A stretch of DNA of 64,000 nt, taken from contig JBBTWP010000001.1 of NCBI GenBank assembly GCA_038062675.1, positions 122,059-186,058 on the forward strand, read 5' to 3'. Within the stretch, counting starts at the first letter, position 1. Each line of letters starts with the position of its first letter. The translations under genes were made by a program, and so were the position numbers. Below are positions 27,789-58,043 of the stretch, in pieces. The stretch comes from Patescibacteria group bacterium (GTDB taxonomy: Bacteria > Patescibacteriota > Minisyncoccia > Phycocordibacterales > UBA1550). The notes under the pieces are model-generated. The model did no database searches. It was not told the origin of the DNA and saw only the letters and a list, made by a program, of their open reading frames with translations.

Positions 27789-28415
27789 TTACGCAGTTTT
27801 TTTCACGAGAAGCAACTCCCGTGTTGCTTTTTTGTGAGTGTACATATTTTGGTCTGCTTGCTCGAAAAGAGTTTCGTAGGAAAGCAATCCTTCGCTTGTG
27901 GATGCGACTCCAATGGAAGCTCCCGAAAAATACACCATGGAATCTCTGAACTCATCAAACTTTTGAAGGAGGCGTTGCTTAACCAACTCAGCACCTTCTT
28001 TGCTTTCTCCGGGGAGAATGGCAGTGAACTCGTCACCACCAATGCGTGCAACCATGTCGTACTCACGCATAAGCTTCTTGAAAAGTTCTCCAAACTCTAT
28101 AATCATCCGATCTCCTTCGGAATGCCCATGCGTGTCATTGACCTTTTTCAAATCATTGAGATCAATAACAAAGATGGAAAAATGATGTTCGGGATGGTGA
28201 TGATGCTGCGAAAGCTCTTCTTTCACCCGATGCTCAAATTGGCGTCTCATCGGTAATCCTGTCAGAAAGTCCACAGAGGCTTCCCGAAGAAGCTCTCTGA
28301 GCTCCTCGTTTTGCCGTAATGCGATGGCCAACTGTGTTTCCAATGACTTGGACATACCTACCTCCAAAAGTTCAAGTTGTAAGGGGTCAAAATTCGATTG
28401 AATGTTGACTGACAA
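27789..28415 (-). CDS. GGDEF-domain diguanylate cyclase (stand-alone)
   Basis: GGDEF signature at RIGGDEFT. 208 aa, no sensor domain. Confidence 0.75.
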   Translation of the reverse strand: MSVNIQSNFDPLQLELLEVGMSKSLETQLAIALRQNEELRELLREASVDFLTGLPMRRQFEHRVKEELSQHHHHPEHHFSIFVIDLNDLKKVNDTHGHSEGDRMIIEFGELFKKLMREYDMVARIGGDEFTAILPGESKEGAELVKQRLLQKFDEFRDSMVYFSGASIGVASTSEGLLSYETLFEQADQNMYTHKKATRELLLVKKTA

Positions 28416-28515: not shown

Positions 28516-28971
28516 ATGACCTTACACGAACAAATCAAAAACGAAGTAAAAGACGCGATGCGTGCCAAAGACGCCATTCGCCTATCAGTAGTACGCGGAA
28601 TTCTTGCCGCTGCCACCAATGAGCTCGTTGCCATTGGCAAAATGCCTCAGGATATGCTCGATGACGTAGGCGTGCTCAAGGTCATAAAACGCCTCTCCAA
28701 CCAACGCAAAGATTCAATAAAGCAATTCACCGACGGTGGACGTCCTGAACTTGCCGAAAGCGAACAGGCTGAGCTCGCAATCCTTGATAAGTATCTCCCC
28801 GCCCTTATGCCGTGGGGTGAGATAAAGAAAATTGCAATCGCAAAAAAAGAAGCTCTCGGTATAACCGACAAGGCAAAAGCAGGTCAGCTCACCGGCGCCA
28901 TCATGAAAGACCTCGCGGGCAAGGCAGACGGCGGCGATGTGAAAGCAGTGGTAGACGAGCTTTTTGTGTAA
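28516..28971 (+). CDS. GatB/YqeY domain protein
   Basis: HEQIKNEVKDAMRAKD...VVRGILAA...AELAILDKYLP YqeY pattern. Start set at an internal Met. Confidence 0.7.
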   Translation: MTLHEQIKNEVKDAMRAKDAIRLSVVRGILAAATNELVAIGKMPQDMLDDVGVLKVIKRLSNQRKDSIKQFTDGGRPELAESEQAELAILDKYLPALMPWGEIKKIAIAKKEALGITDKAKAGQLTGAIMKDLAGKADGGDVKAVVDELFV

Positions 28972-28973
28972 GC
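28894..28973. repeat. direct repeat A (native yqeY 3-prime end)
   Basis: 80 bp, about 76/80 identical to 31488..31567. Confidence 0.85.
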
Positions 28974-28974
28974 T

Positions 28975-31458
28975 CTAGTCCCTCCGCAACTTTTCTTTGT
29001 AGAGATCCAGCCCTAGCAAAACCCAAGCCACTTCATAAAAACCTGCGTACTTGAAAGCATCGACCGACGCGATTTTTCTGTCAAAAATCTCACTCCCCAT
29101 AGTTTTGTTTACCAGACTCACGCCCGTCAACATGGCACCATAGCTTGCGAGCGATCCATACGGCACCTCAGATACTCCAGCCTGAGTGTAAACCGCAAAT
29201 ATTTCACCTTTTGCTACCCAGTCCCGTGCAAACACAGTGTTTTTATTCAAATGTGCAAGCCCGCGAGATTCGCCATACCAAAGGTAGTCCATAGCAACTC
29301 GATAGGGCACCCGCAGTGCATCATAAGAGTACCTCGAGCTCTCTGTTCCATTGAGCTTAAAATCCGCGATCAAGTTCCCTTGGGCGTCAAGGCTACACCA
29401 ATCCATCGCCAGCCCAAGAGCACCAGTACACATAGCAAGCACTTTGTACGAAGAGTCGACAAGCGACATCCACGCATGCTCAGTGTCAAAAGTAGCAAAC
29501 GCTCGGTACTGATAGGGAGCAAGGTAGGATGGGTTGACGACAATACCCGGATAGTAGAGCACTGCCCAGTTCCCTGCCCCCACATAACGCGTACCTGCAA
29601 CTTCTTTTGTTTCTACATTCCAAATATCCCGAACAATTTCTTTTGCCTGATTAAGGTATGCCACATCCCCCCATTTTTTGTATGCCAAATAAAGTGCATA
29701 AGCGATATCCTGATCCGCGTCAGTCGCTGGATTTTTGTCGGGAATAGCACCATTTTCCCACACCCAAGAAAAGAGTTTGTCTGTGGGACGAGTTTGCAGT
29801 GTGCTTCGCGTCCAGTTCCAGACGTTGTCAAACGTGCTCCGGTCGTTCGCAAGAATGGCAATGAGCATGCCGTATGACTGGCTTTCGGATGTCGTTCTAT
29901 TGGTACCACTTTCAACTCTTCCATTTGCAAGGAAATATTTTTCTTTGGTGGTTGTTAAAGTTTTCTGAACGACGGCTTCAATGCCTGAGAGATCGAGGCT
30001 CGTAGGAGTGGGTGCGGGTGCCGTCACAGGGGTTGGTGTTGGTGCGGGCGGAGGAGGGAGCGTGGAAAGCGCAAGAGTTGAACGAATCACATCCAGAAAT
30101 TTCTGTGCGATCTTTGCATGTGCTACTTCTGTCGGATGAATGCCGTCGTACAAGTCAGCGGTTGTTAATACTGAATTTACGTCCACAAAACGAACATTTT
30201 GACCGAGCGCAACACGCGCATCCACATTTTGGCGTATGACGGTGTTAAACTGCTGGACCAAGAGCGAGCGGTCAATATTGTTGGGCTTAACAAGAGCAGA
30301 AGACTGGGGCGGAATAGATGCAACAAAAATCCACGCCGTAGGACGCGCTACGCGTAGTTGGTCAATGAGTGCATTGTGACGAGCCCCAATTTGATTTGCG
30401 TTTTCAGCAGTCCACCACGCAATGTCGTTGGTGCCCGCCATAAGAAGAATGATGTTTGGTTGCGTAGATGTAAGCCAAGGGTTTACATCGCGGGCAATGC
30501 CACCAATCGTAAATCCTGAGTGTCCCTCGTGGTCCTTGTCGGCAACGCGCGTCCATTGGTCGGATTGCGTTCCCACGTAACTCACTCCGCAATTATTCTT
30601 TTGAAGCTCTGTGTATAGATTATTGCGATACCCGCCATTCACACCAAGAGTAATTGAGTCCCCTAAAGGTAGTATGTTGGCACAACTTTGCAATTGGGTG
30701 CTTGTGGATGGCGATGTAACTGGTGGCGGGATTGGAGCCACGGGTGGAGGTGTGGCAACAACAGGTGGTGGGGCAACAACTGGTGGTGGAGTTGGAACCA
30801 CGGGTGGTGGTGTGACTTGGGCTGGTATTGAAACAACAACGGGCGGTGGTGTGACTTGGGCTGGTATTGAAACAACAACGGGCGGTGGTGTGACAACAAC
30901 AGGTGGCGGGATTGGAACCACGGGCGGTGGTGTGACAATAACAGGTGATGGAGTTGGTGGCGGAATAACGACCGGAGGGGTCACAGCAGAAGCTACTGGC
31001 GGCAAAGGAGCCCTCGATGGTGTGCTTGGTGCCGGAACATCTTTTCCTCCCCCATTTGTTGTGGTAATACTTACGGTGACCACCTTATTTGAAGCAGGAG
31101 AAATTGCCGGCGAGGATTTTGTTGAAGGAGCAAGCGGAGCCAGCTCTTTCTTTGCTAGCGTAGAGTTGCGAGTGGCAGAGACTGTTCCCTGTGGAGCCAC
31201 AGAGCGAACATCCTTCGCCACCAAAGAAACAGGTGCCGTAACTCCTGTTTCTTTTTTCACAACGGGAAGAGGAGTATTCGCCACTTTGGTGACTACAGAA
31301 GAAGTAGTGTCAGTGAAATCTGAAAATGGAGGTGTACGAGGAGTCGGAGTCGCCTCCAAAGTCAGGACACCAAGAACAATAACAATTCCTGAGGAAATCA
31401 CCAAAAAAAACCGTATCCAATTTTTATAAAGAAACCACACGTGCTTGAATTGTAGCAC
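28975..31458 (-). CDS. secreted bifunctional SGNH esterase + GH8 glycoside hydrolase with Pro-rich linker
   Basis: N-terminal TM/signal. PPPVV repeat linker. SGNH blocks GDSITLG, GTND, DGIHPT. GH8 signature ATDADQDIAYALYLAYKKW and SQSYGMLIAIL. Confidence 0.8.
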   Translation of the reverse strand: MLQFKHVWFLYKNWIRFFLVISSGIVIVLGVLTLEATPTPRTPPFSDFTDTTSSVVTKVANTPLPVVKKETGVTAPVSLVAKDVRSVAPQGTVSATRNSTLAKKELAPLAPSTKSSPAISPASNKVVTVSITTTNGGGKDVPAPSTPSRAPLPPVASAVTPPVVIPPPTPSPVIVTPPPVVPIPPPVVVTPPPVVVSIPAQVTPPPVVVSIPAQVTPPPVVPTPPPVVAPPPVVATPPPVAPIPPPVTSPSTSTQLQSCANILPLGDSITLGVNGGYRNNLYTELQKNNCGVSYVGTQSDQWTRVADKDHEGHSGFTIGGIARDVNPWLTSTQPNIILLMAGTNDIAWWTAENANQIGARHNALIDQLRVARPTAWIFVASIPPQSSALVKPNNIDRSLLVQQFNTVIRQNVDARVALGQNVRFVDVNSVLTTADLYDGIHPTEVAHAKIAQKFLDVIRSTLALSTLPPPPAPTPTPVTAPAPTPTSLDLSGIEAVVQKTLTTTKEKYFLANGRVESGTNRTTSESQSYGMLIAILANDRSTFDNVWNWTRSTLQTRPTDKLFSWVWENGAIPDKNPATDADQDIAYALYLAYKKWGDVAYLNQAKEIVRDIWNVETKEVAGTRYVGAGNWAVLYYPGIVVNPSYLAPYQYRAFATFDTEHAWMSLVDSSYKVLAMCTGALGLAMDWCSLDAQGNLIADFKLNGTESSRYSYDALRVPYRVAMDYLWYGESRGLAHLNKNTVFARDWVAKGEIFAVYTQAGVSEVPYGSLASYGAMLTGVSLVNKTMGSEIFDRKIASVDAFKYAGFYEVAWVLLGLDLYKEKLRRD
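30802..30879. repeat. in-frame 39-bp tandem duplication inside the Pro-rich linker
   Basis: GGGYGGTGGTGTGACTTGGGCTGGTATTGAAACAACAAC x2, encoding VTPPPVVVSIPAQ x2. Confidence 0.8.
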
Positions 31459-31487
31459 AAAGTGCCATCAGTAAACCAACCCACACG

Positions 31488-31567
31488 GGCGCCATCATGG
31501 AAGACCTCGCGGGCAAGGCAGACGGCGGCGATGTGAAAGCAGTGGTAGACGAGCTCTTTGCATAAGC
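31488..31567. repeat. direct repeat B (orphan copy of the yqeY 3-prime end)
   Basis: Would encode ...GAIMEDLAGKADGGDVKAVVDELFA*. It is detached from any 5-prime part of yqeY. Confidence 0.85.
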
Positions 31568-31595: not shown

Positions 31596-31889
31596 TCAGC
31601 TAAATTGCCTTGTGAATTTTTCAGAAAAAGGCTTGCCGAAAGAAAGGAGTACTTGTCGAGAAAAAGGATCAAGCTTGTCGAATCCCAATACGAGATTTTG
31701 AACAACGAACCATTCCTCGCGCCCTGCGGGACTTATTTCACGAAGCGAAAGTATTTTCGACACCATATCAAGTGTGCGAGTTTTGAATTTAAGCGCAGAG
31801 TCAGTATTTCCTTGATCGTAAGCTTTGAACATTCGAGCAATTTCAGGCTCGACATTTGCGGCATAAAAAAGTGTATTTTTTTCAAACAT
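31596..31889 (-). CDS. hypothetical protein
   Basis: 97-aa ORF. Confidence 0.3.
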   Translation of the reverse strand: MFEKNTLFYAANVEPEIARMFKAYDQGNTDSALKFKTRTLDMVSKILSLREISPAGREEWFVVQNLVLGFDKLDPFSRQVLLSFGKPFSEKFTRQFS

Positions 31890-31892
31890 ATA

Positions 31893-32246
31893 TTATTGTT
31901 TAAACTGAATCCAAGCGTGAATGATCTCTGTAGCTTTCTTTGCAACCTCCTGGTCCTCAACCGAGCGACTTTTATTGCCAAGCGATGGCTTAATATTCAC
32001 CAAAGAATCAAATTCCAAAAGAGCATCCTGACCTTCATCAAATCGAATATTGAACCCCCATACGTTCACATGGTTTGACCCATCTTCAACAAGAAGTTCA
32101 CAGGTCTCCATATGATAATCCCCGCCAATCGCAACTTTGTTCTCAAGAATATCCACCGTCCCTTTAATCATGGTTCCATACCACTCTGTGGCAATTGTGC
32201 GCACCTCTTGCATGGAAGTTGGTTTTTTGAGAATATGTATTGCCAT
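31893..32246 (-). CDS. hypothetical protein
   Basis: 117-aa ORF, 3 nt upstream of the previous ORF. Confidence 0.35.
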   Translation of the reverse strand: MAIHILKKPTSMQEVRTIATEWYGTMIKGTVDILENKVAIGGDYHMETCELLVEDGSNHVNVWGFNIRFDEGQDALLEFDSLVNIKPSLGNKSRSVEDQEVAKKATEIIHAWIQFKQ

Positions 32247-32395
32247 AGAACCATGTTAGCACATAGGCAACCATTTAGGCAAAATACCGTATCCGTCCAC
32301 AACATATGAAAGTTCCCAACCCCCCTTGCCAACTCCCTCATTCCCTGCTAGAGTATGGGCTGGCACATTTTACCCAGCAAATAGGAGTTACTTTA

Positions 32396-32676
32396 TGAGT
32401 AGACCGTCAGTGTATTCAAGCAATCGGCACGTTGTTCAAAAAACAAATGACCCATTGCCTGTCCCCGCCCCTATAGTAGGTGTGGAGCTTGCTATGCTTT
32501 TGCTATCGAAAAATACCCCTATCGAAGCGGCTCAAAGAGCAGTTTCTGAGACAGGTTATACTGCCGCAATCAATAGAGCACAAAGGTTGCCTCAATTGTG
32601 CGTAGCGCGTAATCCCAGAGATAAAATCATTGGACGCGGGTGCAACCAAGACACCATCTGTATTCCTTGGAAATAA
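32396..32676 (+). CDS. small Cys-containing protein, paralog A
   Basis: Preceded by CTGCTAGAGT (extended -10-like) at about 32358. Shares ...VSETGY... with B and C. Start set to the ATG after TTACTTT. Confidence 0.4.
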
Positions 32677-32756: not shown

Positions 32757-33056
32757 ATGGAAAAACAGCCATTGTATTACCCAGTCGCCCCTCTTCAAAG
32801 ACACGACAAGCCTGAGCTACTCAAAGAAAAAGCTCCTTCATTCAAACAAATGACAGGAGAAGAACATGCGAGAGTCCTCCTTCGCGAAGGTTTCAAGGTC
32901 ATGAAGGCGAAGGAGACACTTGAAACCATGGGCTACTTTGTGAGAATTAATAGTATCAATCCGCCCGAGCTCCATGTGTCACTTGCAACACAGAGAACGG
33001 TTACAAATACAAATCTAGAGCCACCCACCAAGTGCGTCCGTTGGGAAATCACATAA
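32757..33056 (+). CDS. small protein, paralog B (PPELxVS...KCVRW family)
   Basis: SD AAGGAG. PPELHVSLA...KCVRWEIT, similar to paralog C. Confidence 0.5.
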   Translation: MEKQPLYYPVAPLQRHDKPELLKEKAPSFKQMTGEEHARVLLREGFKVMKAKETLETMGYFVRINSINPPELHVSLATQRTVTNTNLEPPTKCVRWEIT

Positions 33057-33078
33057 AAAGGAACGGGAGAAACCCCAA

Positions 33079-33107
33079 CCCCCGAGCAGGACTGCTCGGG
33101 GGTTTTC
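33079..33107 (+). terminator. intrinsic terminator
   Basis: CCCCCGAGCAG / CTGCTCGGGGG stem followed by TTTTCT. Confidence 0.6.
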
Positions 33108-33206
33108 TACGCCACAGTTTTAAAAAATACAGGCGATTGACCCATATTACATTCCCTGCTAAAGTACGGGCTGGATATAGTTCACAAGCAAAGGAGGCGT
33201 TTCGCA

Positions 33207-33482
33207 ATGCAAGCACCTAGAGTTGCCCAACCCACACTAGCACCAACCGAGAAAAACGAGTCAGAAGGAGTCGCACTCGCGTATGCACTACTGAAGGGTG
33301 GCGTTGATATCAAAACCGCAAAAAAAGTAGTAGAGGCGTCTGGATATGGAACAGACATAAAGGGAACCCACCCGCCAGAACTGTGGGTGTCGGAGGCGCA
33401 CAGCACAACAATCCACACACAGGGAAGCAACACCCACCTCACTACGCCGATTAAAAAGTGTGTTCGCTGGGACACCGCATAA
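33207..33482 (+). CDS. small protein, paralog C
   Basis: SD AAGGAGG. PPELWVSEA...KKCVRWDTA. Preceded by CTGCTAAAGT at about 33166. Confidence 0.5.
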   Translation: MQAPRVAQPTLAPTEKNESEGVALAYALLKGGVDIKTAKKVVEASGYGTDIKGTHPPELWVSEAHSTTIHTQGSNTHLTTPIKKCVRWDTA

Positions 33483-36994: not shown

Positions 36995-37873
36995 ATGATT
37001 AAAATTCTCAAAAAAATTACTCCTCAATTTGTTTTTACTTTTGTTGGAAGATATCATGTTATTAAAAACACAGAATCGTTTCTCCAACAACCCCTGTATA
37101 GCATCTTGAAATTAGTGCGGTGGACAATTTTTGAATTATTGGGTCTGGATATATCATTTACCACTCCTGACGGAACTCGTTTTACTTCAATGACGCGCAA
37201 CTACAGTTCCTTTATTGTCTATTTTACAGACTATCGAGACCCATCAATTCAATTATTTTTAAACAAACACCTCACCAAAGACTCAATATTTGTAGATGCA
37301 GGGGCAAATATTGGTACGTACACAATACGCGCAGGACAACAGGTTGGCTCACAAGGGAAAGTAATCGCTGTGGAAGCCCATCCATCTATTTATAAGTACT
37401 TACTAAAAAATATTGAGTTGAATAATTTAAACAACATAACTCCCGTTAACGTTGCTCTTGGATCCGAACGCGGTACTACAGAAATATCTTACAATGACTC
37501 AAATCCTGGCGAAACTCACGTAGCAATTAATGGGGAGAAAAGCATTGTTGTACCAATACAGACACTCGACGAAGTCCTGGAAAAACTTGGAGTCGATCAT
37601 GTGGATTACCTCAAAATTGATGTTGAAGGTTTTGAACTTCCATTGCTCTTAGGTTCACAGGAAACGATTAAAAATAATCCTGAGATTGTTATTCAAACGG
37701 AGCTTGTCGAAAAACACTCAAAAAGATACGGACGTTCTGTAACACAAATTACCGATTTACTTTCTAGTTTTGGACTAATCCCTCATGAGCTCGACTTTGA
37801 GGGAAATCCAGCAAAAATAGAAAAATTTGATTTGGCAAGAAAAGAATACGATGTTCTTTGGTGGAGAGAGTAA
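36995..37873 (+). CDS. FkbM-family methyltransferase
   Basis: VDAGANIGTYT SAM-binding motif. Confidence 0.65.
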   Translation: MIKILKKITPQFVFTFVGRYHVIKNTESFLQQPLYSILKLVRWTIFELLGLDISFTTPDGTRFTSMTRNYSSFIVYFTDYRDPSIQLFLNKHLTKDSIFVDAGANIGTYTIRAGQQVGSQGKVIAVEAHPSIYKYLLKNIELNNLNNITPVNVALGSERGTTEISYNDSNPGETHVAINGEKSIVVPIQTLDEVLEKLGVDHVDYLKIDVEGFELPLLLGSQETIKNNPEIVIQTELVEKHSKRYGRSVTQITDLLSSFGLIPHELDFEGNPAKIEKFDLARKEYDVLWWRE

Positions 37874-37882
37874 CTAAAAATT

Positions 37883-39067
37883 TTATTGCTTATTCTTTTC
37901 AGCTACATCATTATATAATTTGACTATTATCTGTGCATGTTGTTCAATGTCAAAATCAAGCGCCCTGCTACGAGCATTCAGAGACATTTCTTGGAGCATT
38001 CCTGGAGTGGATAAAATCCTTATGACCTTATCCGCAATCGCAGAAGAATTTTCTGGAGGAACTAAATAGCCGGTTTCACCATCAACTAACCACTCACTCA
38101 TCCCACCAGCATCGCTTGCTATTACGGGACGACCAAGGCTCATCGCCTCAATCCCGACCTTGCCAAAAGGCTCAGGCCAAACTGAAGGGACAATTAAGAT
38201 TTTTAAACGTCGATAAAGATCATGGAGCTGTCCTCGATTTAAGTGTCCAAGAAAATTGACATGACTTTCAATACCTAGCTCCTTTGTGAGTAATTTCAAT
38301 TGATTTTCATAAGGGCCAGTGCCAGCAATATCTAATCTTATATCAGAATATCTTTTAATTATGTTCGGCATGGACTCAATCAAATACTGTACTCCTTTGA
38401 ATTTTTCTATTCGACCAACGTATGCAATAAGATTACTTTGTAAGTCAATTGGTTCGTACTCGAATAATTTTGTTGCGTTGGGCACACAAACACTTTCAAT
38501 GTGGTCGACCTTCATCAAATTTTTCATGTACTGGCTAAAAACAATAAAAAGATCTACATTTCTAAAACCAAAGCGATAAATAGCACCATTAATATAGCGA
38601 TGATATACATAATGTAGCCACCCTGAGAAGTTCAGTCCACTAAGTTTATATTGATCATCCTTGAAACAAGTTTTAGGAAAACTCCACAACAATAAACTTG
38701 GAGTGAAATCCTCTGCTCCATGAATCGTCATAACTGTGGGGTATTTTTTTAACAAAAAAAGAACTGATGGCGAAACTTGACTCATTGTATGTAGTTGCAC
38801 AATGTCAGGTTGGTATTCTTTGAGAACTTTTCGAAGTGCGAAATATGAATTCGGATAGAATGATCGATAGAATAATTTAAGAACATGGGGCTGGTAATCA
38901 AGTGCCTTAAATTCAAAATCGCTGAAGTGGGGTAAATCGGAGCGAAGATTGCTCGTTAAGATTTTCACGGTGTGTCCCATGCGTCTCAATACTTTATCAA
39001 CAAGGATAATCCCATTGTCTGAGCCACCCCCTTCAAAACCAATACTTGTAATTCTTAAAATTTTCAT
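37883..39067 (-). CDS. GT4 glycosyltransferase
   Basis: EPFGKVGIEAMSLGRPVIASDAGG retaining GT-B motif. Confidence 0.8.
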   Translation of the reverse strand: MKILRITSIGFEGGGSDNGIILVDKVLRRMGHTVKILTSNLRSDLPHFSDFEFKALDYQPHVLKLFYRSFYPNSYFALRKVLKEYQPDIVQLHTMSQVSPSVLFLLKKYPTVMTIHGAEDFTPSLLLWSFPKTCFKDDQYKLSGLNFSGWLHYVYHRYINGAIYRFGFRNVDLFIVFSQYMKNLMKVDHIESVCVPNATKLFEYEPIDLQSNLIAYVGRIEKFKGVQYLIESMPNIIKRYSDIRLDIAGTGPYENQLKLLTKELGIESHVNFLGHLNRGQLHDLYRRLKILIVPSVWPEPFGKVGIEAMSLGRPVIASDAGGMSEWLVDGETGYLVPPENSSAIADKVIRILSTPGMLQEMSLNARSRALDFDIEQHAQIIVKLYNDVAEKNKQ

Positions 39068-39070
39068 AAT

Positions 39071-41491
39071 TTATTTGTATATTTTTGCTCCCCCGTTATT
39101 GTAAATAAGATTTTTATTATCGTCCAGAAATTGCATAGGATACATATAAGTTATTTGGTCTCCACCGTAGACTACTGTAGCCCTTTGTTTTCTGGTTGTT
39201 GCCTCACCCAAAAATACATATGCATCTTTTCGTACTACCGCGGGAAAAATTTCATTTGTTACATCTAAAGGGGTTAAAGATGTAATCTTTCTCTGAGAAT
39301 ACCTATCCGTTTGAATTTTAATCTTAACCCCATGAGTATCACTGTGAGGGATAGCGTCAAGCCATGTAACCCCCAACACCTCAGGAGCTTTAATGAGATA
39401 GTTGTCATAATATCTTCCCGTATTGTTCAAATGAAGCATTCCTGAAGTTTTACCGAAGATTTGGGGCAAAAATGACGTAGAATACATAAAAAACAATAAT
39501 GTTAAAATTACGGGGAATACGATATTTTCGTCGTTTTTTTGTGTTAGTATTGAGGTTACCTGTTTTTTAGATTTAAAACGAGATAATAATTTTTTAATCC
39601 AACTACCGATCCACAAGCTCGCAATCAGTATGGGAAGCGCTAATACAAACATAGATTGCTGCATGGCTCTATATATTCCGTATTCGGTAGAAAGAACAGG
39701 GATTACTAGGATCAAGAATATAAAGGTGAGAGCAGACACCGCTATTATATAAAATTCGCTATCAAGATATCTTACGGCAGACCTTCGCAACAAGAAATAC
39801 AAGAGCCCTAACGGTACCAAGACTTCCATGAGCTTTACAAGTATTCGTCCAAAAGCAGAGATTTTTGAAGTAATATTAAATCCTGATTTTTCTACAAAGT
39901 TGCCAAAATTGGTTAAAGGTATTCGCTCATCAGGTAAGGCAAGAAAGTTATATTTCGCATATGTCGATGCATCAAAATACACCCCCGGTGTCGCGGTATT
40001 TCTAATTGGGTTAAGAACTTTTTCAATGTAATCTTGCAGTTGTTCTTGCTGGCTTGGTTTTTTTAAACTGAATAAGTTTAAGGCATCAGTAGATCGATTG
40101 TTTTCATTAAACCCGTTTCCAATCGCAGATAGTGTCTTTTTTAAAACGGTGGTTATGCTTCCCCCTGTGTTGGTAACAACTGACGTCCACAGGAAACTCA
40201 CTAGCATCAGAATGACAATCATGGAAACCGTGATATTCGCTTTTTTCTCAGTCCCGCTGGTTGTAAGTGGAATATGCAGTGATGAATCCTTGAGTATGTT
40301 TGTTTTCTGATTAAAAAATTTAAACAACCAAATAAATATCGGTCTCAATACTATTGTCAATGCAAAAATTAAAAGTATAGTATACGTTGTTGAATAGTGG
40401 GAAAGTATCACTCCAATTCCCATTACAACAAACAATATTCTACGAACTTTAATATCCAGCTTTAATTCAAAGATGAGGTAAATCATCAACCCATAAAAAA
40501 GAAAGGCGATCTCCTGTCGAACAAGAAATGCCATATCCGCAAAAAAAGTTGGAAAGGACAAAAAATAAAATCCGGCAAGAAATGATATACGACGATCTGC
40601 CCAATGTCGGCTAATTAAATACGTAATTCCTGCGCAAAGTGCAAAGAATAACTGAAACAAAAATTTATAGATATACGGATCCGATACCTTTAGCAAATTG
40701 AAAAAAATGGTGGGAAGTATGGTAATGCTTAAGCATGCATTGTATGCATCACGATAAAAGTCCATATTCCAGAGACCAGCATTTTTTGTAAGTTCAAAAA
40801 CTTTATATTCTTGTTGTATGTCGTGCCCGGTAATATACCATCCGCGCAAACTTGTCATCAAGAGGAGTGATAAACTAATGAAAAAAAGTGCCGTTGGTAC
40901 CGTGTTTTCACCAATTTTTTTAGCATAAATATACAAGACTAGCGCAAAGACAGCTATTTCGCCCAACATCGCCAGTGTCCACAACCCAGTACCTCCATTA
41001 TTGAGACTTAGCGCCCCAATGATGCTTTGCACAACAAACAACATAGAGATTAGAGACAACCATGTATCCAACTTGGATGGAAAAAGCAAATAAAATATTT
41101 TACCGATGCTTACTTCCCAGTCAGGCAATTTTTTCCAAGCGACAAAAGATAGCGCAAATACTAAAATACTCATCTCCACAATAAGTACATTTTGAGCAAG
41201 TGGTTGAATAATGCCAAGCTTGGGAAGGAAGAAGTTTCCAATTAACACCATAACCATCAACTCTAAAAGACTAAAAGCCACACTTATCGATACATTCGCC
41301 CAAAAAGGAAGTTGTTTCAGCCTCAAAATGAGCAATGTGAGTACCCCAGGAACAAATGTTAAAAAAAGAAAGCCGACAATATTAAGTACCTGAAAATTGT
41401 TGAAATGCGCAAGAGAGAGCGCAATAAAAACCAGCCACCATAGAGCGACCCCTCCGATTAGAAAATTACGCTTTATTGTTAGTTCTTTCAT
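39071..41491 (-). CDS. large polytopic membrane protein (putative polymerase/GT-C-like)
   Basis: 806 aa with more than 14 predicted TM helices and a C-terminal soluble domain, inside the glycosyltransferase operon. Confidence 0.55.
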   Translation of the reverse strand: MKELTIKRNFLIGGVALWWLVFIALSLAHFNNFQVLNIVGFLFLTFVPGVLTLLILRLKQLPFWANVSISVAFSLLELMVMVLIGNFFLPKLGIIQPLAQNVLIVEMSILVFALSFVAWKKLPDWEVSIGKIFYLLFPSKLDTWLSLISMLFVVQSIIGALSLNNGGTGLWTLAMLGEIAVFALVLYIYAKKIGENTVPTALFFISLSLLLMTSLRGWYITGHDIQQEYKVFELTKNAGLWNMDFYRDAYNACLSITILPTIFFNLLKVSDPYIYKFLFQLFFALCAGITYLISRHWADRRISFLAGFYFLSFPTFFADMAFLVRQEIAFLFYGLMIYLIFELKLDIKVRRILFVVMGIGVILSHYSTTYTILLIFALTIVLRPIFIWLFKFFNQKTNILKDSSLHIPLTTSGTEKKANITVSMIVILMLVSFLWTSVVTNTGGSITTVLKKTLSAIGNGFNENNRSTDALNLFSLKKPSQQEQLQDYIEKVLNPIRNTATPGVYFDASTYAKYNFLALPDERIPLTNFGNFVEKSGFNITSKISAFGRILVKLMEVLVPLGLLYFLLRRSAVRYLDSEFYIIAVSALTFIFLILVIPVLSTEYGIYRAMQQSMFVLALPILIASLWIGSWIKKLLSRFKSKKQVTSILTQKNDENIVFPVILTLLFFMYSTSFLPQIFGKTSGMLHLNNTGRYYDNYLIKAPEVLGVTWLDAIPHSDTHGVKIKIQTDRYSQRKITSLTPLDVTNEIFPAVVRKDAYVFLGEATTRKQRATVVYGGDQITYMYPMQFLDDNKNLIYNNGGAKIYK

Positions 41492-42606
41492 AAAGATATG
41501 CTCCCATAAACTTCTTCAAGCTGGTCGATGAATCGCGACCACTTATATTGCTTGGCTTTTTCAGAACTTTTCTTCGATAGCGCAATCAATTTTTCTGGCG
41601 CACGCCAGAGTTGCTCAATCGTTCGAGCAAAATTTTCTGCGTATGGTTCGTTTACGAGCACCCCCGTGTCATTCAAAAGCTCCCTGACACCAGAAACATT
41701 TGTTCCCAAAATTGGCAATCCTCCCGCCATGGCTTCCAGTACGACAAGTGGAGTGCCGCCCTCTTTGTCGGAAGCTATGAGAAACGCATCGTGACTGCGA
41801 TGGTACTCCTGCATTTCTTTGTCATTTTTTCTTCCCTCAAATGAAACATTGGAAAGTTTTAGTTTTTTTACCAATGCTTCCAATTTTGAACGATCTTCAC
41901 CGTCGCCAACAATCGTCAAATGAGCTGGAATAGAAAGTTTTGATACTGCTTCTATGAGTCGCTCAACTCGCTTTTGTAGTGCAAGTCGCCCAACATACAG
42001 GAGACGGATTTGTTTTGTTGATGGAGCATAAACTTTGTTGGTGAAAAAATCTTCACTAACAGCATTTGCAATAACAACAATATTTTCTTTTTTAACTCCA
42101 AATTTGCGTTCCACTACCATTGCTTGATCCTGCGAACAAGCAATGACCCGACGTGCATTTCGAAGTACTGGTCCCCATACTATTTTTTTATATAATACAA
42201 ATATGGGTCCAAAAAAACCTGATGGTTCTACGTCAAGATGAAAATGTGCGATATAGGGAATGCGTCGCAACTTTGAGGCAAGTAAAACAAGTTCTGGCCA
42301 ATATGCATGCGCGAGGTGCAAATGAATAATGGAATTACGTGGCAACATAAGCAAATGCCATAATAGTGTTGGCGCGAAAGGAGTATGAGCAAACTCAAAA
42401 CTCCATAGAGCACTGACACAAAGATTATCTTTTGTCTCAGTCCCCCTCTGTATGCCACTGATGGCAGAAGTAAGCACGTGCACAAAATTCCCTTTTTTTG
42501 CCAACTCTTCTGCAGATATTTTTGCAACACGCTCCAATCCGCCAGTATGTGGGGGGTAATAGGCGGCAATGTGGGTTATCTGTGTTATTTTTTGTGTAGT
42601 TTTCAT
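41488..42606 (-). CDS. GT4 glycosyltransferase
   Basis: GGTPLVVLEAMAGGLPILGTNVSG. Confidence 0.8.
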   Translation of the reverse strand: MKTTQKITQITHIAAYYPPHTGGLERVAKISAEELAKKGNFVHVLTSAISGIQRGTETKDNLCVSALWSFEFAHTPFAPTLLWHLLMLPRNSIIHLHLAHAYWPELVLLASKLRRIPYIAHFHLDVEPSGFFGPIFVLYKKIVWGPVLRNARRVIACSQDQAMVVERKFGVKKENIVVIANAVSEDFFTNKVYAPSTKQIRLLYVGRLALQKRVERLIEAVSKLSIPAHLTIVGDGEDRSKLEALVKKLKLSNVSFEGRKNDKEMQEYHRSHDAFLIASDKEGGTPLVVLEAMAGGLPILGTNVSGVRELLNDTGVLVNEPYAENFARTIEQLWRAPEKLIALSKKSSEKAKQYKWSRFIDQLEEVYGSISL

Positions 42607-44894
42607 GGTAATAGTTCATTAAAAATTTTCGATATTTTTTTTGCTATCATACCCCAACCATATCTTTCCTCAATCAATTTGCGCCCACGAGCTCCCATTC
42701 TTCTCTGATCGTCTACATTTTCTAAAATTGCAATAATTACATCGGCTAGCTCCTTCGAGTTTGCCTTCGCTACCACCATACCTGTTTTATGTTGACTAAT
42801 CTCTGGAGCAACTCCAGCAACGTCCGTAGTGACGACAGGTATCCCACTTGCCATTGCTTCAAGTAAAACAATGCCAAATCCTTCAATTTCGATAGATGGA
42901 AGAACAAAGACGTTGGACCGTTGGTAGTATTGTATCAATTCTTCTTGCGTTTTTTTTCCGTGAAATTCAATCACATCTTCTACTCCCATTTTTTTAGATT
43001 CTTCTCGGTATTCATCAACAAGAGCGCCTTCTCCAACAACAATCAATTTTACATTTGGAATTTTTTCTTTTATTTTTGGTATTGCGTGAATTAGGTAATT
43101 AAAACCTTTAAAACGATGGTGTTCATCCAAGATAGAGACAAAAAGAATTGTAGGGTGCTTACTCTTGTTGGTTGATGGTTGAAACATTTCTGTATCAACG
43201 CCATTTGGTAGTGTGGTAATTTTTGACGAAAAACGTTCAAATATATTCCTTGTCTTTTTGAAAGCTGTTTTCCAGTGAGGATTAACTATAATAATTTTAT
43301 CTACAAAATACAAAGTGACCTGAAAGAAGGTATGAAGATAAATCCAAGTGATTATTTTACCAAATAAATCAGGTTTATCCATGTCATTGTGCACCGTCAA
43401 GATTGACCGTTTTCCTTTCAATTTTGCAACAAGAACAGTAATGTCAGATGTCCAAGGAGTTGGCATGTGCGTGTGAGCAATATCAAAATTAGTACGCCAC
43501 AGCACCCAAGGAAGACCTAGGGCGATATTCGTGTTTGCCACTTTAAAACTATAATTGAGCCGTTTTATTTTTGCTCCATTTACGATGCTTTCTTTCTCAA
43601 CAATAGGTTCATTTGCGCAAATGACTGTTACTTCGTGCCCAAGTTTTATAAGTTCTTTAGACAAATAGTACACGTGATTTTCTACTCCGCCGATGTATGG
43701 ATAAAAACGTATAGGAGTTTCCAATATCTTAATTTTATGTGATGTATGCCTATCTATCATTGACAAGAAAAACTCATGACAAACTTTCGCACGAATTCCC
43801 CAACTAAAATCTTTAGTAACTTTAATCACTCCTGCATTGCCAAAACTATGTGCGAGAGCGGGATTTGCTAATAATTCAGAAAGTTTTTGAGCGAGAGCTC
43901 TCCCATCGCAGGGTTCTACCAAAAACCCTGTTTCATTATCAGAAACAAGGTCGGGAACACTACCTACTTTAGTTGAAACAACTGGCAAACCTGACGCCAT
44001 AGCTTCCAAGATTGCCATACTAAAACTATCGTTTGATGTGGGGAGCGCAAAAATATGCGCTTGTTGATATTGTTCCGCAAGTTTTCCACCAAGCAGACGA
44101 CCGGTAAACATCACTACCTTCCCCAACCCAAGCTTTTGCACTCGCTCCTCATATTCACTTTTCATATTTCCGTCACCAACAACAGTAAGGCGTAAATCGG
44201 GAATATTTTTCTGTAGCTTAGCTACCACTTCAATAAGAGTTTGCAGACCTTTGTGCTGTTCCGCCTTGGCAAGTCCCGCAACAAACAAAATACTCGGGTA
44301 CTTTGTTTTTTTCTCGGAGACTGGCTTGAAAAGGTTGGTATCAACTGCAGGAGTAATAGTTACGCTTTTGTGTGCATATTTTTGTAAAAAAATAAGACGT
44401 ACAAAATCGGATGAACAAATAATCTGATCTGCGCGTTTCAAAAGCCATCGCATCGGTCCATGTTCATAAATCCATACCAAAATATCAAATAGAGTTTCCC
44501 CTTTGTGCATACTTCCTGTGTGATACGTGACAACAATAGGGGTCTTTTTTGCGAACATTGCCACAAGGTCGCCAATACCAGGCACTGGTGTGTGTATGTT
44601 TATAATATCAGGATTTTCCGTTTTCAAAATATGACGAATCTTTTTTGTCCACTTGAAACTAAATGGTGTGTTTGAGACTTTTAGTCCGTAAGAAAGTCGG
44701 TACATGGTCAGTCCTTCCACCTCCTCTTTAGCATCTGCGCCATGTCGTTCTCCAGAAGTAACCACTACCACATTCCATTGGTATTCGCGAGAAAGCCGAT
44801 GAGAGATCTCATACGCATAGCGTTCCAGCCCGCCACCATAAGGCGGGAAATATGGAGCAACAACAAGCACTGTTTTCTTTAGTGAGTTACTCAT
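42603..44894 (-). CDS. fused double GT4 glycosyltransferase
   Basis: Two complete GT4 units (FSMAILEAMASGLPVVSTKVG and EGFGIVLLEAMASGIPVVTTDVAG), 763 aa. Confidence 0.8.
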   Translation of the reverse strand: MSNSLKKTVLVVAPYFPPYGGGLERYAYEISHRLSREYQWNVVVVTSGERHGADAKEEVEGLTMYRLSYGLKVSNTPFSFKWTKKIRHILKTENPDIINIHTPVPGIGDLVAMFAKKTPIVVTYHTGSMHKGETLFDILVWIYEHGPMRWLLKRADQIICSSDFVRLIFLQKYAHKSVTITPAVDTNLFKPVSEKKTKYPSILFVAGLAKAEQHKGLQTLIEVVAKLQKNIPDLRLTVVGDGNMKSEYEERVQKLGLGKVVMFTGRLLGGKLAEQYQQAHIFALPTSNDSFSMAILEAMASGLPVVSTKVGSVPDLVSDNETGFLVEPCDGRALAQKLSELLANPALAHSFGNAGVIKVTKDFSWGIRAKVCHEFFLSMIDRHTSHKIKILETPIRFYPYIGGVENHVYYLSKELIKLGHEVTVICANEPIVEKESIVNGAKIKRLNYSFKVANTNIALGLPWVLWRTNFDIAHTHMPTPWTSDITVLVAKLKGKRSILTVHNDMDKPDLFGKIITWIYLHTFFQVTLYFVDKIIIVNPHWKTAFKKTRNIFERFSSKITTLPNGVDTEMFQPSTNKSKHPTILFVSILDEHHRFKGFNYLIHAIPKIKEKIPNVKLIVVGEGALVDEYREESKKMGVEDVIEFHGKKTQEELIQYYQRSNVFVLPSIEIEGFGIVLLEAMASGIPVVTTDVAGVAPEISQHKTGMVVAKANSKELADVIIAILENVDDQRRMGARGRKLIEERYGWGMIAKKISKIFNELLP

Positions 44895-45595
44895 ACAAGT
44901 TTTCCATTAGTGAGATATTCTACACCGGCTTTATTGGCAATATGTTGAAACACACGTTCTAAGCGATTCCAATCTTTTAGTTTTTCAATTTCCCAACTAT
45001 GTCCCCAAATATGAAAAACTCCTCCGTTTTCAGAGACACGCTCAAACATAGCAATGGCAAGATTATCCCAATGGCGATAGTATTGGAAAAATTTAAATGG
45101 ATTGAATCGCACAAAGAGTGCAATCTGCCATGCATCCAGCCAGTGGTCGTAAGTGTGTATGCTGGTCGGCATTTCGTAGAGGTCTTTTATAAAACCAAAA
45201 GAGAATCTGCGCACAGTGCGCGCGAGGACAAACCCTGCTTCCCGTACCACTTGCTTCTGCTTCAAAAGGTATTTTCCGCTCGGGTAACAGAAACTTTTCA
45301 CAGAACCACCCGTCCACTTTTCAAGAAGCTTTTTTGAATCAGAAATTTCGCGCTCAATTTGTTCATCAGTTAACAAGCGCATATCGGGATGCGTCATGGT
45401 GTGTGCGCCTATCTCAAAATCTTTTGACAAGGCCAGGACTTGCACTTGAGAAAGTCTATCTTGAGGGAGAATTTCGTGGCATTCAGGAGCAATATAAAAA
45501 GTGCCCTTGAGATTGTACTTTTTAAGAAGTTGCGCAAGTTTTAGGTCGAGCACGTGTCCATCATCCCAACTGGTTGTTACGATTACTTTTTTCAT
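44891..45595 (-). CDS. polysaccharide deacetylase (NodB-like)
   Basis: TSWDDG...GTFYI and HTMTHP motifs. Confidence 0.6.
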   Translation of the reverse strand: MKKVIVTTSWDDGHVLDLKLAQLLKKYNLKGTFYIAPECHEILPQDRLSQVQVLALSKDFEIGAHTMTHPDMRLLTDEQIEREISDSKKLLEKWTGGSVKSFCYPSGKYLLKQKQVVREAGFVLARTVRRFSFGFIKDLYEMPTSIHTYDHWLDAWQIALFVRFNPFKFFQYYRHWDNLAIAMFERVSENGGVFHIWGHSWEIEKLKDWNRLERVFQHIANKAGVEYLTNGKLV

Positions 45596-45599
45596 AATA

Positions 45600-46730
45600 T
45601 TATTCTAACGCACGTTTATAATTCTGCGCCACGCTTGCCCAATCATACTCCCCAATCCCCTGTTTTGGGTTTAAGGTGTCTATGGTTTTGAATATTTGCA
45701 GGATTTTTTCAGCGACACTTTCTGAGTTTAGTTCTGCAAGCAAACCATTTACTCCCTCGTGTATTAGGTCTTTTGCAGCGTTTCGTTCATGATTGATAGT
45801 CAAGACGGGAAGCCCGCACGCGTTTGCCTCAATCACGATAATACCAAATCCTTCCCGAGTTGAAGGCAATACTAAAATTTTTGAGGATTTCATAAGTCCA
45901 TAGAGTTCGCTTGGATCTTGCAAAAAGCCAAAAAATGAAACATTATTTTCAAGCTCTAGTTCATGGGTAAGTTTCTGAAGTTTTTCTTTTTCTGGTCCCT
46001 CCCCTACCACAAAAAGCGACAAGTTTATATTTTTTTGCACCAGAATCCCTACTGCACGAATCAAAACATCTACATTTTTATTTTGTAACAATCTTCCTGC
46101 AAATATTATATCAGATGCACGAGATGAGGGCGCGCTGTTTTGTATTGCATCAATATCCACCCCATTTGGTACAGTAACAACATTTTTACTTCTTCCAAGA
46201 GTCTCGCGAAGTCCAATCGTGGTGTGGTTTGAAACTGAAATGATAACATCAGGGAGCGTTACTGTTATTTTTTCAACCCAATAACCAACTAGTCCTAATT
46301 TTCCCAAATATTCTCTCCAATACTCTTTTCCCCATACTTCATGCCATGTAGTATACAGGGGTTTTCGTTTTACCCAAGTTACCAAACGGCATGAAAAAAG
46401 TGAGAAATAAGGAAAACCACAACAATCAATGATGTCGAACTTTTCAGACCATAATTTAAGGCAGTTAACACCAAACCATACCGCTTGAAGCATAGAACGG
46501 CGCCCTGAGTCTGTATAAAGTGGCATCGCCTTGCATATGCCATGCAACGTCATCCCCTCAAATTTCATGATTGTGGGACCGTCCCAACACTTCATCCCAT
46601 ACAGGTGTACATCATGTCCTTCTTTTGCAAGCCGTCGACCAATTTCATAAAATCGCTTTTCTGCGCCCCCCTTAATAAAGGGAAAGACCGCATCATAAAC
46701 TAAAGCAATTTTTTTAGATTGGACTGACAT
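45600..46730 (-). CDS. GT4 glycosyltransferase
   Basis: EGFGIIVIEANACGLPVLTINHERNAA. Confidence 0.8.
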   Translation of the reverse strand: MSVQSKKIALVYDAVFPFIKGGAEKRFYEIGRRLAKEGHDVHLYGMKCWDGPTIMKFEGMTLHGICKAMPLYTDSGRRSMLQAVWFGVNCLKLWSEKFDIIDCCGFPYFSLFSCRLVTWVKRKPLYTTWHEVWGKEYWREYLGKLGLVGYWVEKITVTLPDVIISVSNHTTIGLRETLGRSKNVVTVPNGVDIDAIQNSAPSSRASDIIFAGRLLQNKNVDVLIRAVGILVQKNINLSLFVVGEGPEKEKLQKLTHELELENNVSFFGFLQDPSELYGLMKSSKILVLPSTREGFGIIVIEANACGLPVLTINHERNAAKDLIHEGVNGLLAELNSESVAEKILQIFKTIDTLNPKQGIGEYDWASVAQNYKRALE

Positions 46731-47946: not shown

Positions 47947-48230
47947 CTATCTATATATCATATTTTTGCCCAAAAAGCAAGGGCTGGCATGGGGAAAACT
48001 TTGAGAATAGGCACGAAATGCTGGATTTTGTTGGAAAGTCGGTGGTGCAGGGGTGTCATGGTGCCGGAATACAACTTATTGACTTCGCAAAGGGTTTGCA
48101 CTGTATGCCCGATTATGATAAAATGCAAATAGGAGTATGCAATAATAACTTACGTGGTGCTCTGGTGTTCCCACAGAGGATCTGTGACTTAAGCTAGAGA
48201 CTGACACTGCGTGAGACCGCTACTTCTAAC

Positions 48231-48265: not shown

Positions 48266-48910
48266 CTACTTGAAGAATTCTTTGGTACTAAGAATGTTAT
48301 TTTGAATAATTTTATAGCATTCTTCCCCGAGTGGTTTTTTCTCAAGATACCAAGCAAGTGCACCAGAAACCCAATCTGCAATTTGAATATTAGCATTTGC
48401 AGTAGAATCGATCATCTGAATATCAACAAACGTTCCAGGTGAGCAAACAGGGAGAAGCTGGGCTTTCACTGATTCCCTAAAACTATTCCTTGTAAGTCCT
48501 TTAAGGTGTCTATTGTCACAAAAAATATAGAATTCTTTTTCATCTGTTGGTAAATATGTTTTTATAATTTCTGCAATGATTGCCGCGTAGAGCAATCCGC
48601 TTTCCAGCTTGCCTGCATTGTTTCTAAAGTCACTCGGAATGTTTTCCCGTTGTAGATACCCATAACGAATCCTTACATCAAGCTCTGCGATATGCTTAAG
48701 TGTCCGCAATCGTAATGAGTCATCCACGCTCGTAGATGACCACTTTATCTCATTCTGTGTTCGCATTTTTCTTGGAAATCTAGACTGACGCCAAGATTTG
48801 AATGCTTTCTCTGTGCGCCTTTGGTCACCCACAGTGAATGAACCTATTACAAAATATTCTTCATTGTTATGTTTGGTGAATTGACCGCTTTCGTCTAAAA
48901 ATATATACAT
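48266..48910 (-). CDS. DUF3800 family protein
   Basis: MYIFLDESGQF N-terminus and IQIADWVSGAL C-terminal motif. Confidence 0.55.
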   Translation of the reverse strand: MYIFLDESGQFTKHNNEEYFVIGSFTVGDQRRTEKAFKSWRQSRFPRKMRTQNEIKWSSTSVDDSLRLRTLKHIAELDVRIRYGYLQRENIPSDFRNNAGKLESGLLYAAIIAEIIKTYLPTDEKEFYIFCDNRHLKGLTRNSFRESVKAQLLPVCSPGTFVDIQMIDSTANANIQIADWVSGALAWYLEKKPLGEECYKIIQNNILSTKEFFK

Positions 48911-51296: not shown

Positions 51297-51308
51297 TGTT
51301 TACACGAA

Positions 51309-51338
51309 CGCCGAGTCGCAAGACTCGGCGGTTTTTTT
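51309..51338. terminator. bidirectional intrinsic terminator
   Basis: CGCCGAGTC-GCAA-GACTCGGCG-GT7. Serves paralog 3 (+) and uvrC (-). Confidence 0.6.
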
Positions 51339-51341
51339 GTA

Positions 51342-55260: not shown

Positions 55261-55367
55261 GATGTAATATGGCCCTCAATTTGACAAAAAGTCATAGAAG
55301 TTCCTTTATACTAGCAGGTTTTTGGATTTCGGCAACCGTGCTCGAAGTTCTCGTTGTGCCTTGAAAA

Positions 55368-55400
55368 GCCCCTACATGACAAACTGAGTCATGTAGGGGC
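55368..55400 (-). terminator. strong hairpin (13-bp stem)
   Basis: GCCCCTACATGAC-aaactga-GTCATGTAGGGGC, followed on the minus strand by TTTTC. Confidence 0.5.
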
Positions 55401-55403
55401 ATG

Positions 55404-55577
55404 TTACCGCTTTTGTCGCATCCGCCTGCGAAGAAAACGATTGTTTACGTGTTGATAGTACGGCGATATTTTATATTGTCGTAAAGGAAGAGCAAGAGGT
55501 AAAGGAACAGCGACTATGATCGATGCTGAAATAACAACAGAAAGTAAGGCAGGCATACGATCTTTTGTTGATTTCAT
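55404..55577 (-). CDS. small membrane protein (57 aa)
   Basis: SD GGGAGG 5 nt upstream of the ATG, one TM helix, followed by the 13-bp hairpin. Confidence 0.3.
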   Translation of the reverse strand: MKSTKDRMPALLSVVISASIIVAVPLPLALPLRQYKISPYYQHVNNRFLRRRMRQKR

Positions 55578-55763
55578 GAAAACCTCCCAATGTAGTAATG
55601 CTACGGAGATGTTTTGTTGACACAACGATTTGCTTCTGGTGATTAGGATACGAGAATCGCTGATATTTGTCAATCTTCCGCATGGTATCTTATGAAAGAA
55701 GAGCGTGCTATCATTATCTCTAGCGCTGAATAATAGCATCAGAGTTCCTTACGAGGAGGTATT

Positions 55764-56483: not shown

Positions 56484-56530
56484 GTACAACAAAAAACCAC
56501 CTCGCATGCTTGTGCGCGGTGGTTTTTCTA

Positions 56531-57058: not shown

Positions 57059-57095
57059 CTGGATAATTTTAATAAAATTTAATTTTAATAATTTT

Positions 57096-57954: not shown

Positions 57955-58043
57955 GGTCGTTTGTTGTAATACAAAGAACTACTAGCAACTACGAATCTAT
58001 AGTTACTTGAAGAGTATACACGGAGCAGGTCTCAAAATCAATA

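Follow-up and report, generated by a model that had tools for sequence, protein, structure and literature searches.

Introduction

Transformable bacteria commonly have hot spots that contain no mobile elements and are turned over by recombination in the core genes on either side (Oliveira et al. 2017, PMC5635113). In the type VI secretion system (T6SS) arrays of Vibrio cholerae and at Rhs loci, displaced 3' ends or orphan modules are found behind newer inserts, and the same mechanism that we consider below has been invoked for them (PMC5361080, which for homology-facilitated illegitimate recombination cites de Vries & Wackernagel 2002 and Prudhomme et al. 2002). Among Patescibacteria (candidate phyla radiation, CPR), natural competence has been demonstrated in Saccharibacteria (PMC10633639). 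Here we analyzed a stretch of 64,000 nt (hereafter, the window) from a Patescibacteria metagenome-assembled genome (MAG) that originates from Hainich groundwater, well H41 (GCA_038062675.1, contig JBBTWP010000001.1, positions 122,059 to 186,058 of the forward strand). In this window, the 3' end of the gene yqeY occurs a second time, behind a convergent gene for a predicted secreted esterase/glucanase, and this orphan end may be the scar of homology-anchored recombination between two arrangements of a hot spot located between yqeY and uvrC.

A second, orphan copy of the yqeY 3' end

The features that carry the argument are the following, in coordinates of the window:

28516-28971, plus strand: yqeY, intact, encoding a GatB/YqeY-domain protein of 151 amino acids (aa) (Pfam YqeY, 4e-35)
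28890-28973, plus strand: repeat copy 1, the final 82 nt of yqeY including the stop codon and 2 nt beyond, ending ...TAAGC
28907-28961, identical to 31501-31555, plus strand: perfect core of the repeat, 55 nt (direct comparison of the copies)
28975-31458, minus strand: gene for an SGNH esterase and glycoside hydrolase family 8 (GH8) endoglucanase-like protein, predicted to be secreted or membrane-anchored, 827 aa as the longest open reading frame (ORF)
31484-31567, plus strand: repeat copy 2, an orphan, displaced yqeY 3' end without the gene body
31596-32246, minus strand: the orf97 and DUF5674 gene pair (Pfam DUF5674, 6e-24), at the left edge of a glycan island
28972-51341, no strand: lineage-specific interval from yqeY to uvrC, 22.4 kb, absent from 10 relatives
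51342-52550, minus strand: uvrC (Pfam UvrC_RNaseH_dom, GIY-YIG and UVR)

The two copies form a direct repeat of 84 nt with 79/84 identical positions, 2594 nt apart from start to start, so that the repeat noticed in an initial annotation of the window (about 80 bp, about 76/80) is real, slightly longer, and more similar than first described. The copies disagree at five places (4, 17, 73, 78, and 79 in repeat numbering), leaving the 55-nt core free of mismatches (P ~0.02 if five mismatches are placed at random). The repeat is local, as had been supposed, and not a widespread dispersed element: a 68-nt pattern derived from it matches the window at two places and no others (0.00 expected, 100 shuffles), and no third copy of the yqeY end was detected in the 64 kb by low-stringency blastn and tblastn searches with the whole yqeY as the query.

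Copy 2 indeed retains the in-frame pseudo-C-terminus and stop codon ascribed to it, reading ...TGAIMEDLAGKADGGDVKAVVDELFA and then a stop in the yqeY frame. Its similarity to yqeY breaks off sharply at 31484, with no yqeY body upstream, and it carries a lysine-to-glutamate (K-to-E) replacement at a position that is a conserved lysine in the nearest 16 of 17 loci compared from relatives, which is consistent with a functionless remnant. The orphan copy, which sits between the stop codon of orf97 and the start of the GH8 gene, has no evident function. The 2510 nt between the copies contain, as originally reported, a single gene on the opposite strand (the sole long ORF, 28975-31458), and no inverted repeats were found at the ends of the 2.6-kb segment.

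The repeat structure is real and not an assembly artefact. An independent ENA assembly from another sample (L031, a 265-kb contig) covers positions 18402-38971 at 99.98% identity, including both copies, and short-read contigs from four other assemblies (two Logan runs and two ENA assemblies) are 99.9-100% identical to the window. Four of these short-read contigs, from three assemblies, stop within the identical core, at 28932, 31526, or 31501, as expected of a genuine repeat longer than the k-mer size; the other two cross copy 1.

The yqeY-uvrC interval in relatives

Close strains were retrieved through the YqeY protein cluster. The window YqeY is identical to NCBI MEK7538381.1; matches were obtained with a 189-aa start call of the protein (P0087), and exact-protein look-ups with the longest-ORF GH8 protein, the 151-aa YqeY, and the GGDEF protein gave no match, the database using other start-codon calls. 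Among GTDB genomes, the nearest belong to Yonathbacteria-like Parcubacteria, whose YqeY is 77-80% identical to that of the window, and the upstream synteny (RmuC, a 67-aa ORF termed sm67, GGDEF, yqeY) is kept in the relatives.

In 10 relatives (L001, L002, L004-L008, L010, L012, and L013), yqeY directly abuts a convergent uvrC homolog, the two genes being 4-530 nt apart, and uvrC is followed by uvrA, uvrB, and tgt in the same order as at 52.6-63.3 kb of the window. Thus, the lineage-specific DNA extends over 22.4 kb, up to uvrC at 51342, and the 2.5-kb segment between the repeats, initially taken for the inserted unit, is only part of it. The empty site predicted for such a unit, with yqeY joined to the sequence from 31568 onward, occurs in no relative, and neither does the duplicated segment without the GH8 gene, which had been named as evidence against the proposal.

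In addition to the GH8 gene, the orphan yqeY end, and the orf97-DUF5674 pair, the interval contains three small paralogous ORFs, a GH5-like gene, genes for a flippase and an FkbM methyltransferase, four glycosyltransferase family 4 (GT4) genes, one of them with two tandem GT4 modules, a GT2 gene, genes for a polysaccharide deacetylase and a DUF2206 membrane protein, a DUF3800 gene with a DUF3800-V RNA, and four unknown ORFs. Judging from these predicted products, the interval is mostly a surface-glycan (polysaccharide) cluster. In the glycan cluster at 36995-46730, the GC content at third codon positions (GC3) is 0.30-0.40 (0.30-0.36 in most genes) versus ~0.45-0.56 in the flanking core genes.

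The corresponding interval of L015 consists of 7.5 kb of unrelated genes (beta-lactamase-like, VanY, and AAA proteins), and no recombinase is encoded in either that interval or the one in the window. In L036, yqeY is followed by a different sequence, with a terminator-like hairpin (read from the sequence) and an unrelated gene. The yqeY-uvrC interval thereby presents itself as a variable spot and, on gene content, fits a hot spot of horizontal transfer between core genes that is free of mobile-element genes. The right edge of the 22-kb island has no copy of the yqeY end, so the island is not bracketed by repeats resembling attachment (att) sites.

Relative age of the GH8 gene and the duplication

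From the comparison of strains, the adjacency of GH8 and yqeY appears to be old (clade level) and the duplication young (species level). The GH8 gene lies directly after yqeY in the sister strain L034 (from a different sample; yqeY 98.2% and GH8 97.9% identical), and the GH8 3' end follows yqeY directly in L035; in both, yqeY ends in ...CTCTTTGCGTAAGC, followed by the GH8 stop region, and no divergence step at 28890 was detected relative to these sister strains. In L045, a more distant species (YqeY 87% identical in amino acids, locus 73.7% identical in nucleotides), a GH8 homolog is convergent to yqeY and located 61 nt downstream, with 65% amino acid identity over the last 120 residues. The contigs of L034, L035, and L045 end inside GH8, and the L044 contig reaches to within 22 nt of copy 2 and ends there.

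Counted in bases, copy 2 is 5 of 84 away from copy 1, 3 away from the yqeY end of L034, 11 from that of L036, and 15 from that of L045 (81 positions compared for L045). Because the GH8 adjacency appears older than the duplication, the event that made the repeat is unlikely to have first brought GH8 to this site, and the idea that this event delivered a polysaccharide-degrading enzyme probably does not hold for this clade, given that GH8 lies by yqeY in L045 and that copy 2 is far closer to the yqeY of its own genome.

The yqeY end of L034 and L035 is intermediate between the two copies in the window, two changes from copy 1 and three from copy 2, and looks ancestral to both. Given this intermediate position, the copies were probably near-identical at their origin, and the five differences between them are best read as later mutations; near-identity at origin, in turn, points to a conspecific partner. 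Compared with L034 and L035, copy 1 has two derived C-to-T changes near its 3' end. Because these flank changes postdate the divergence from L034 and L035, in which the same GH8 is found, they are not element-specific arms.

The composition of the GH8 gene, which had been proposed as a check, is native: no gene in the window has a lower codon-usage distance, GC3 is 0.435, and the slightly raised total GC is due to the Pro-rich linker.

Search for mobile-element genes

As stated in the initial annotation, no integrase is present: we found no integrase, recombinase, or transposase among the ~64 window ORFs scanned against Pfam, PHROGs, and NCBIfam, and the precomputed Pfam annotation of L031 agrees in showing no recombinase. 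No PHROG match was obtained for the window ORFs apart from DUF3800, and no similarity of the segment to phages, plasmids, or IMG/VR sequences was found. The loci of ~30 relatives contain no duplication of the yqeY end, and we found no published account of yqeY serving as an integration site. Insertion of a transposon or insertion sequence (IS) was rejected as a candidate: the duplication is 84 nt and not 2-15 bp, the segment ends lack terminal inverted repeats, and there is no transposase.

Homology-anchored recombination as the preferred explanation

We favor, with a probability of about 0.5, the explanation that copy 2 is a displaced yqeY 3' end, a scar of homology-anchored recombination between two arrangements of the yqeY-uvrC hot spot. 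Of the two origins initially suggested for the segment, the homologous-recombination insertion comes close to this explanation, whereas the remnant of site-specific integration is not supported, neither a recombinase nor recurrence at the site having been found.

Starting from the observed repeat with its sharp boundaries, the hot spot, the age order, and the lack of mobile-element genes, the events could have run as follows. Closely related genomes would have held arrangement A, in which yqeY is followed by the convergent GH8 gene, and arrangement B, the existence of which we infer, in which the convergent orf97-DUF5674 pair and the glycan island come after yqeY. DNA of one, whichever the direction, would have recombined into the chromosome of the other, with the first crossover in shared sequence and the second being an illegitimate join at 31483/31484. 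Two pathways could account for this, homology-facilitated illegitimate recombination and a Campbell-type single crossover of a circularized fragment. The product would be the order yqeY, GH8, yqeY 3' end, orf97 and so on, the older or incoming yqeY end having been pushed behind GH8.

The position where the homology ends supports this scenario. The similarity between the copies ceases 2 nt past the yqeY stop codon, at the point where the downstream sequences diverge: TAAGC continues with TCTAG in the GH8 haplotypes, with AAGATC in copy 2, and with AACACG in L036. Furthermore, orf97 is convergent to the orphan yqeY end across a 24-nt spacer, and copy 2 together with this spacer and orf97 looks like a former genuine end of a yqeY gene. 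That the homology ends at the divergence point of a gene end argues against a local duplication followed by deletion and against a template-switch patch; we estimate that a random endpoint would land near the yqeY stop in well under 1% of cases.

Several observations weigh against this explanation. The mismatches are grouped at the ends of the repeat, a distribution that homology-anchored recombination does not predict and that is more typical of att sites or gene conversion, both of which fit it better. Arrangement B, with a full yqeY abutting orf97, was present in no assembly in a GTDB genome scan with YqeY and a metagenome scan with DUF5674, and neither arrangement B nor an empty site was found in searches with YqeY and orf97 homologs combined with context look-ups. 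In relatives, the DUF5674-orf97 pair resides at other loci, beside a membrane protein of 646-675 aa (Wzy_C by Pfam in L046; the same length class in L038) and/or sugar-nucleotide genes, which in L038 and L046 resemble those for GDP-mannose dehydratase and fucose synthase, judging from their N-termini; in L037 a helicase-like gene lies downstream of the pair instead. The sister contigs (L034, L035, L045, and L044) end before the position of copy 2 and are uninformative on it. Finally, recombination events of the proposed kind usually need natural competence, which has been shown in Saccharibacteria and not in this lineage.

Apart from its position, the pair of DUF5674 and the 97-aa ORF is a conserved two-gene module, found in other Parcubacteria with 80-85% amino acid identity. 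The neighborhoods of the module hint at a role of the DUF5674 family, the function of which is unknown, in surface-glycan biology.

Alternative explanations

The alternative that survives best, although we consider it unlikely, is a purely local rearrangement without foreign DNA, either a tandem duplication of 28890-31483 followed by loss of the second GH8 gene or a replication template switch that copied 84 nt of yqeY into the region upstream of GH8. Tandem duplications are the commonest spontaneous rearrangements in bacteria, the GH8 gene is resident and compositionally native, and the copies, probably near-identical at origin, both resemble the yqeY of this species. However, two events are required, and chance would have had to place the second endpoint no more than 2 nt from the yqeY stop codon (~10 in 2594 for a random deletion endpoint). 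Moreover, the usual fate of a tandem duplication of 2.6 kb is collapse through homologous recombination, not trimming, and there is no other trace of a second GH8 copy.

It is improbable that the repeats are the attL and attR sites of a site-specific element or cassette that targets the 3' end of yqeY, with the integrase lost or acting in trans. The single-gene segment, the identical 55-nt core with mismatches confined to the flanks, and the duplicated gene end that restores both the reading frame and the stop codon all suit such an element. Nevertheless, the ~64 ORFs of the 64-kb window include no tyrosine or serine recombinase and no transposase, the yqeY end is not duplicated in the loci of the ~30 relatives, and the flank differences of copy 1 postdate the split from strains that carry the same GH8, a gene that is native in composition and old at the site. 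The lack of phage, plasmid, or IMG/VR similarity and of a published yqeY integration site points the same way.

Rather improbable, too, is a duplication that dates back to the arrival of GH8 next to yqeY in the ancestor shared by the window species and L045, with gene conversion from the live gene having kept the copies alike. The perfect core between diverged ends fits a conversion tract, and the adjacency of GH8 is common to L045, but a functionless fragment of 84 nt would have had to persist over ~26% nucleotide divergence in a streamlined genome, conversion is unlikely to be efficient with no more than 84 nt of homology, and the K-to-E change in copy 2 was left uncorrected.

Still more doubtful is the idea that the 2.6-kb unit is an integrase-less single-gene mobile cassette that inserts repeatedly at the 3' end of yqeY in Yonathbacteria-like Patescibacteria, served by a recombinase in trans, such that the GH8 gene of L045 would be an independent insertion of a related cassette. 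The chance that two strain variants were chimerically joined at a shared k-mer is negligible: although several short-read contigs stop within the repeat, both copies are spanned by the independent 265-kb contig from another sample, four further similar places have been reported, the repeat is shorter than one sequencing read, and copy 2 has flank bases of its own and non-yqeY sequence at its left, which a k-mer chimera would not give.

The SGNH/GH8 gene

The protein encoded between the repeats, called as 808 aa with a start at 31401 in ENA, has a hydrophobic N-terminal anchor and combines an SGNH/GDSL esterase domain with a GH8 domain, its linkers being tandem repeats rich in Pro, Val, and Thr. 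Both domains score well above their Pfam cut-offs (Glyco_hydro_8, PF01270, 3.1e-44, 151.9 bits versus 24; Lipase_GDSL_2, PF13472, 5.5e-15, 56.7 bits versus 32.9), and a partial BcsZ-like match in NCBIfam lies under the curated cut-off of that model. The GH8 domain is similar to the endoglucanases of PDB entries 6vc5 and 1cem (5e-27 and 8e-26), of the CelA and BcsZ-like types. In the alignment to 6vc5, the catalytic-motif regions SESQSYGM and ATDADQDIA pair with SEGQGYGM and ATDGDLLIA, respectively, corresponding to the endoglucanase motifs SE(S/G)Q.YGM and ATD.D. On the strength of these domains and motif regions, we assign the predicted protein to GH8, with an SGNH esterase module.

The linker is encoded by the following feature, within which the short-read contigs L027, L028, and L032 end:

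30718-30951, minus strand: tandem repeats of 18, 21, and 39 nt encoding the Pro/Val/Thr-rich linker, of PPPVV(T/S) type

Many GH5-SGNH proteins from other metagenomes have SGNH modules that are 75-82% identical to the SGNH domain of this protein (residues ~262-453). The combination of GH8 and SGNH was seen only in this species (P0001), in a search that was saturated by SGNH-domain matches, at 80% identity to the modules of GH5-SGNH proteins, and sampled GH8-domain relatives poorly. These similarities suggest domain shuffling among secreted glycan-active enzymes. An extended -10-like element, TGCTACAAT, was seen by eye at ~31449-31457 on the minus strand, just inside the segment; a consensus promoter scan made no call there and regional matches did not exceed the shuffle expectation, and we claim no promoter.

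Neighboring genes

Further features of the island and its surroundings are the following:

32395-32676, 32757-33056, and 33207-33482, plus strand: three tandem paralogous small ORFs of 93, 99, and 91 aa, 24-42% identical
48131-48227, plus strand: DUF3800-V RNA (Rfam RF02964, 72 bits)
48266-48910, minus strand: DUF3800 gene, adjoining the DUF3800-V RNA within the island
~51303-51340, no strand: bidirectional hairpin terminator next to uvrC (sequence inspection)
59694-61730, no strand given: uvrB, conserved, 81-87% amino acid identity to relatives

The three small paralogs have a common C-terminal ...KCVRW motif and belong to no Pfam or PHROG family. Each is preceded by a Shine-Dalgarno-like motif and a -10 box discerned by eye, a consensus scan finding a promoter-like site for the first only. 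The first and third have a 25-nt repeat in common (32339-32363 and 33150-33174), and the sister strain L044 lacks ~33065-33458, that is, one copy of the small ORF. The position of the DUF3800-V RNA beside a DUF3800 gene is the usual association.

Upstream of yqeY, the GGDEF diguanylate-cyclase gene (27789-28415, minus strand) is 79.6% identical to L034 at the nucleotide level, compared with 96.5-98.5% for the surrounding RmuC gene, 67-aa ORF, yqeY, and GH8, and L035 shows the same pattern. Such hypervariability of the GGDEF gene between strains suggests allele replacement or diversifying selection.

Between uvrA and uvrB (55261-59693) lies a second variable slot of ~4.4 kb, versus ~0.4-1.9 kb in relatives, which holds unknown ORFs, a low-GC ORF (57096-57623, GC 0.29), and a Peptidase_C39 gene. 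A 96-nt tRNA-Thr called by ARAGORN at 60933-61028 was rejected: it lies inside the conserved uvrB coding sequence and is almost certainly a false positive.

Discussion

If homology-anchored recombination is indeed the origin of the orphan yqeY end, the locus is a Patescibacteria example of a clean sequence footprint left where recombination, without mobile-element genes, turned over an island. Mechanisms of gene flow in Patescibacteria are poorly documented, with Saccharibacteria the only group for which natural competence has been shown, and footprints of this kind are rarely recorded. Furthermore, the yqeY-uvrC interval then stands out as a variable slot, which in this lineage holds a predicted surface-glycan cluster and a predicted secreted esterase/glucanase, plausible determinants of interactions with hosts or phages.

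The feature is a further example of known processes and no new kind of element or mechanism. It resembles the att duplications that tyrosine recombinases produce for islands and prophages at the 3' ends of tRNA, tmRNA, and protein genes, in that a direct repeat of the target 3' end flanks DNA, the target gene stays intact, and an identical core is set between imperfect flanks. It differs from them in having no recombinase, no recurrence at the site in relatives, no foreign composition, and an enclosed gene that appears older than the repeat. Campbell-type insertion-duplication likewise leaves a direct repeat of the homologous segment on each side of the insert, and the added length would be 2594 nt here; no replicon or circular form is known for this locus, and we count this process as a variant of homology-anchored recombination.

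Closer parallels are the T6SS effector-immunity arrays of V. cholerae and the Rhs and contact-dependent inhibition (CDI) loci (PMC5361080). There, too, a conserved upstream gene serves as the homology anchor, newer DNA lies directly after it, part of the former 3' end lies farther downstream, its orientation unchanged, and no recombinase gene is present. In contrast to those loci, the anchor here is the housekeeping gene yqeY rather than a toxin gene, a single displaced end and not an array is found, the displaced piece brings no functional module such as an immunity gene, and the parental arrangements are not observed. The concept of hot spots without mobile elements was defined on the pangenomes of species with multiple genomes (Oliveira et al. 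2017, PMC5635113), whereas here it is applied to ~30 metagenome fragments from one Patescibacteria family. The yqeY-uvrC interval nonetheless matches those hot spots in its core genes that are adjacent in most relatives, its 0.2-22 kb of differing genes, the absence of an integrase, the low GC content of part of the island, and its predicted surface-polysaccharide cargo.

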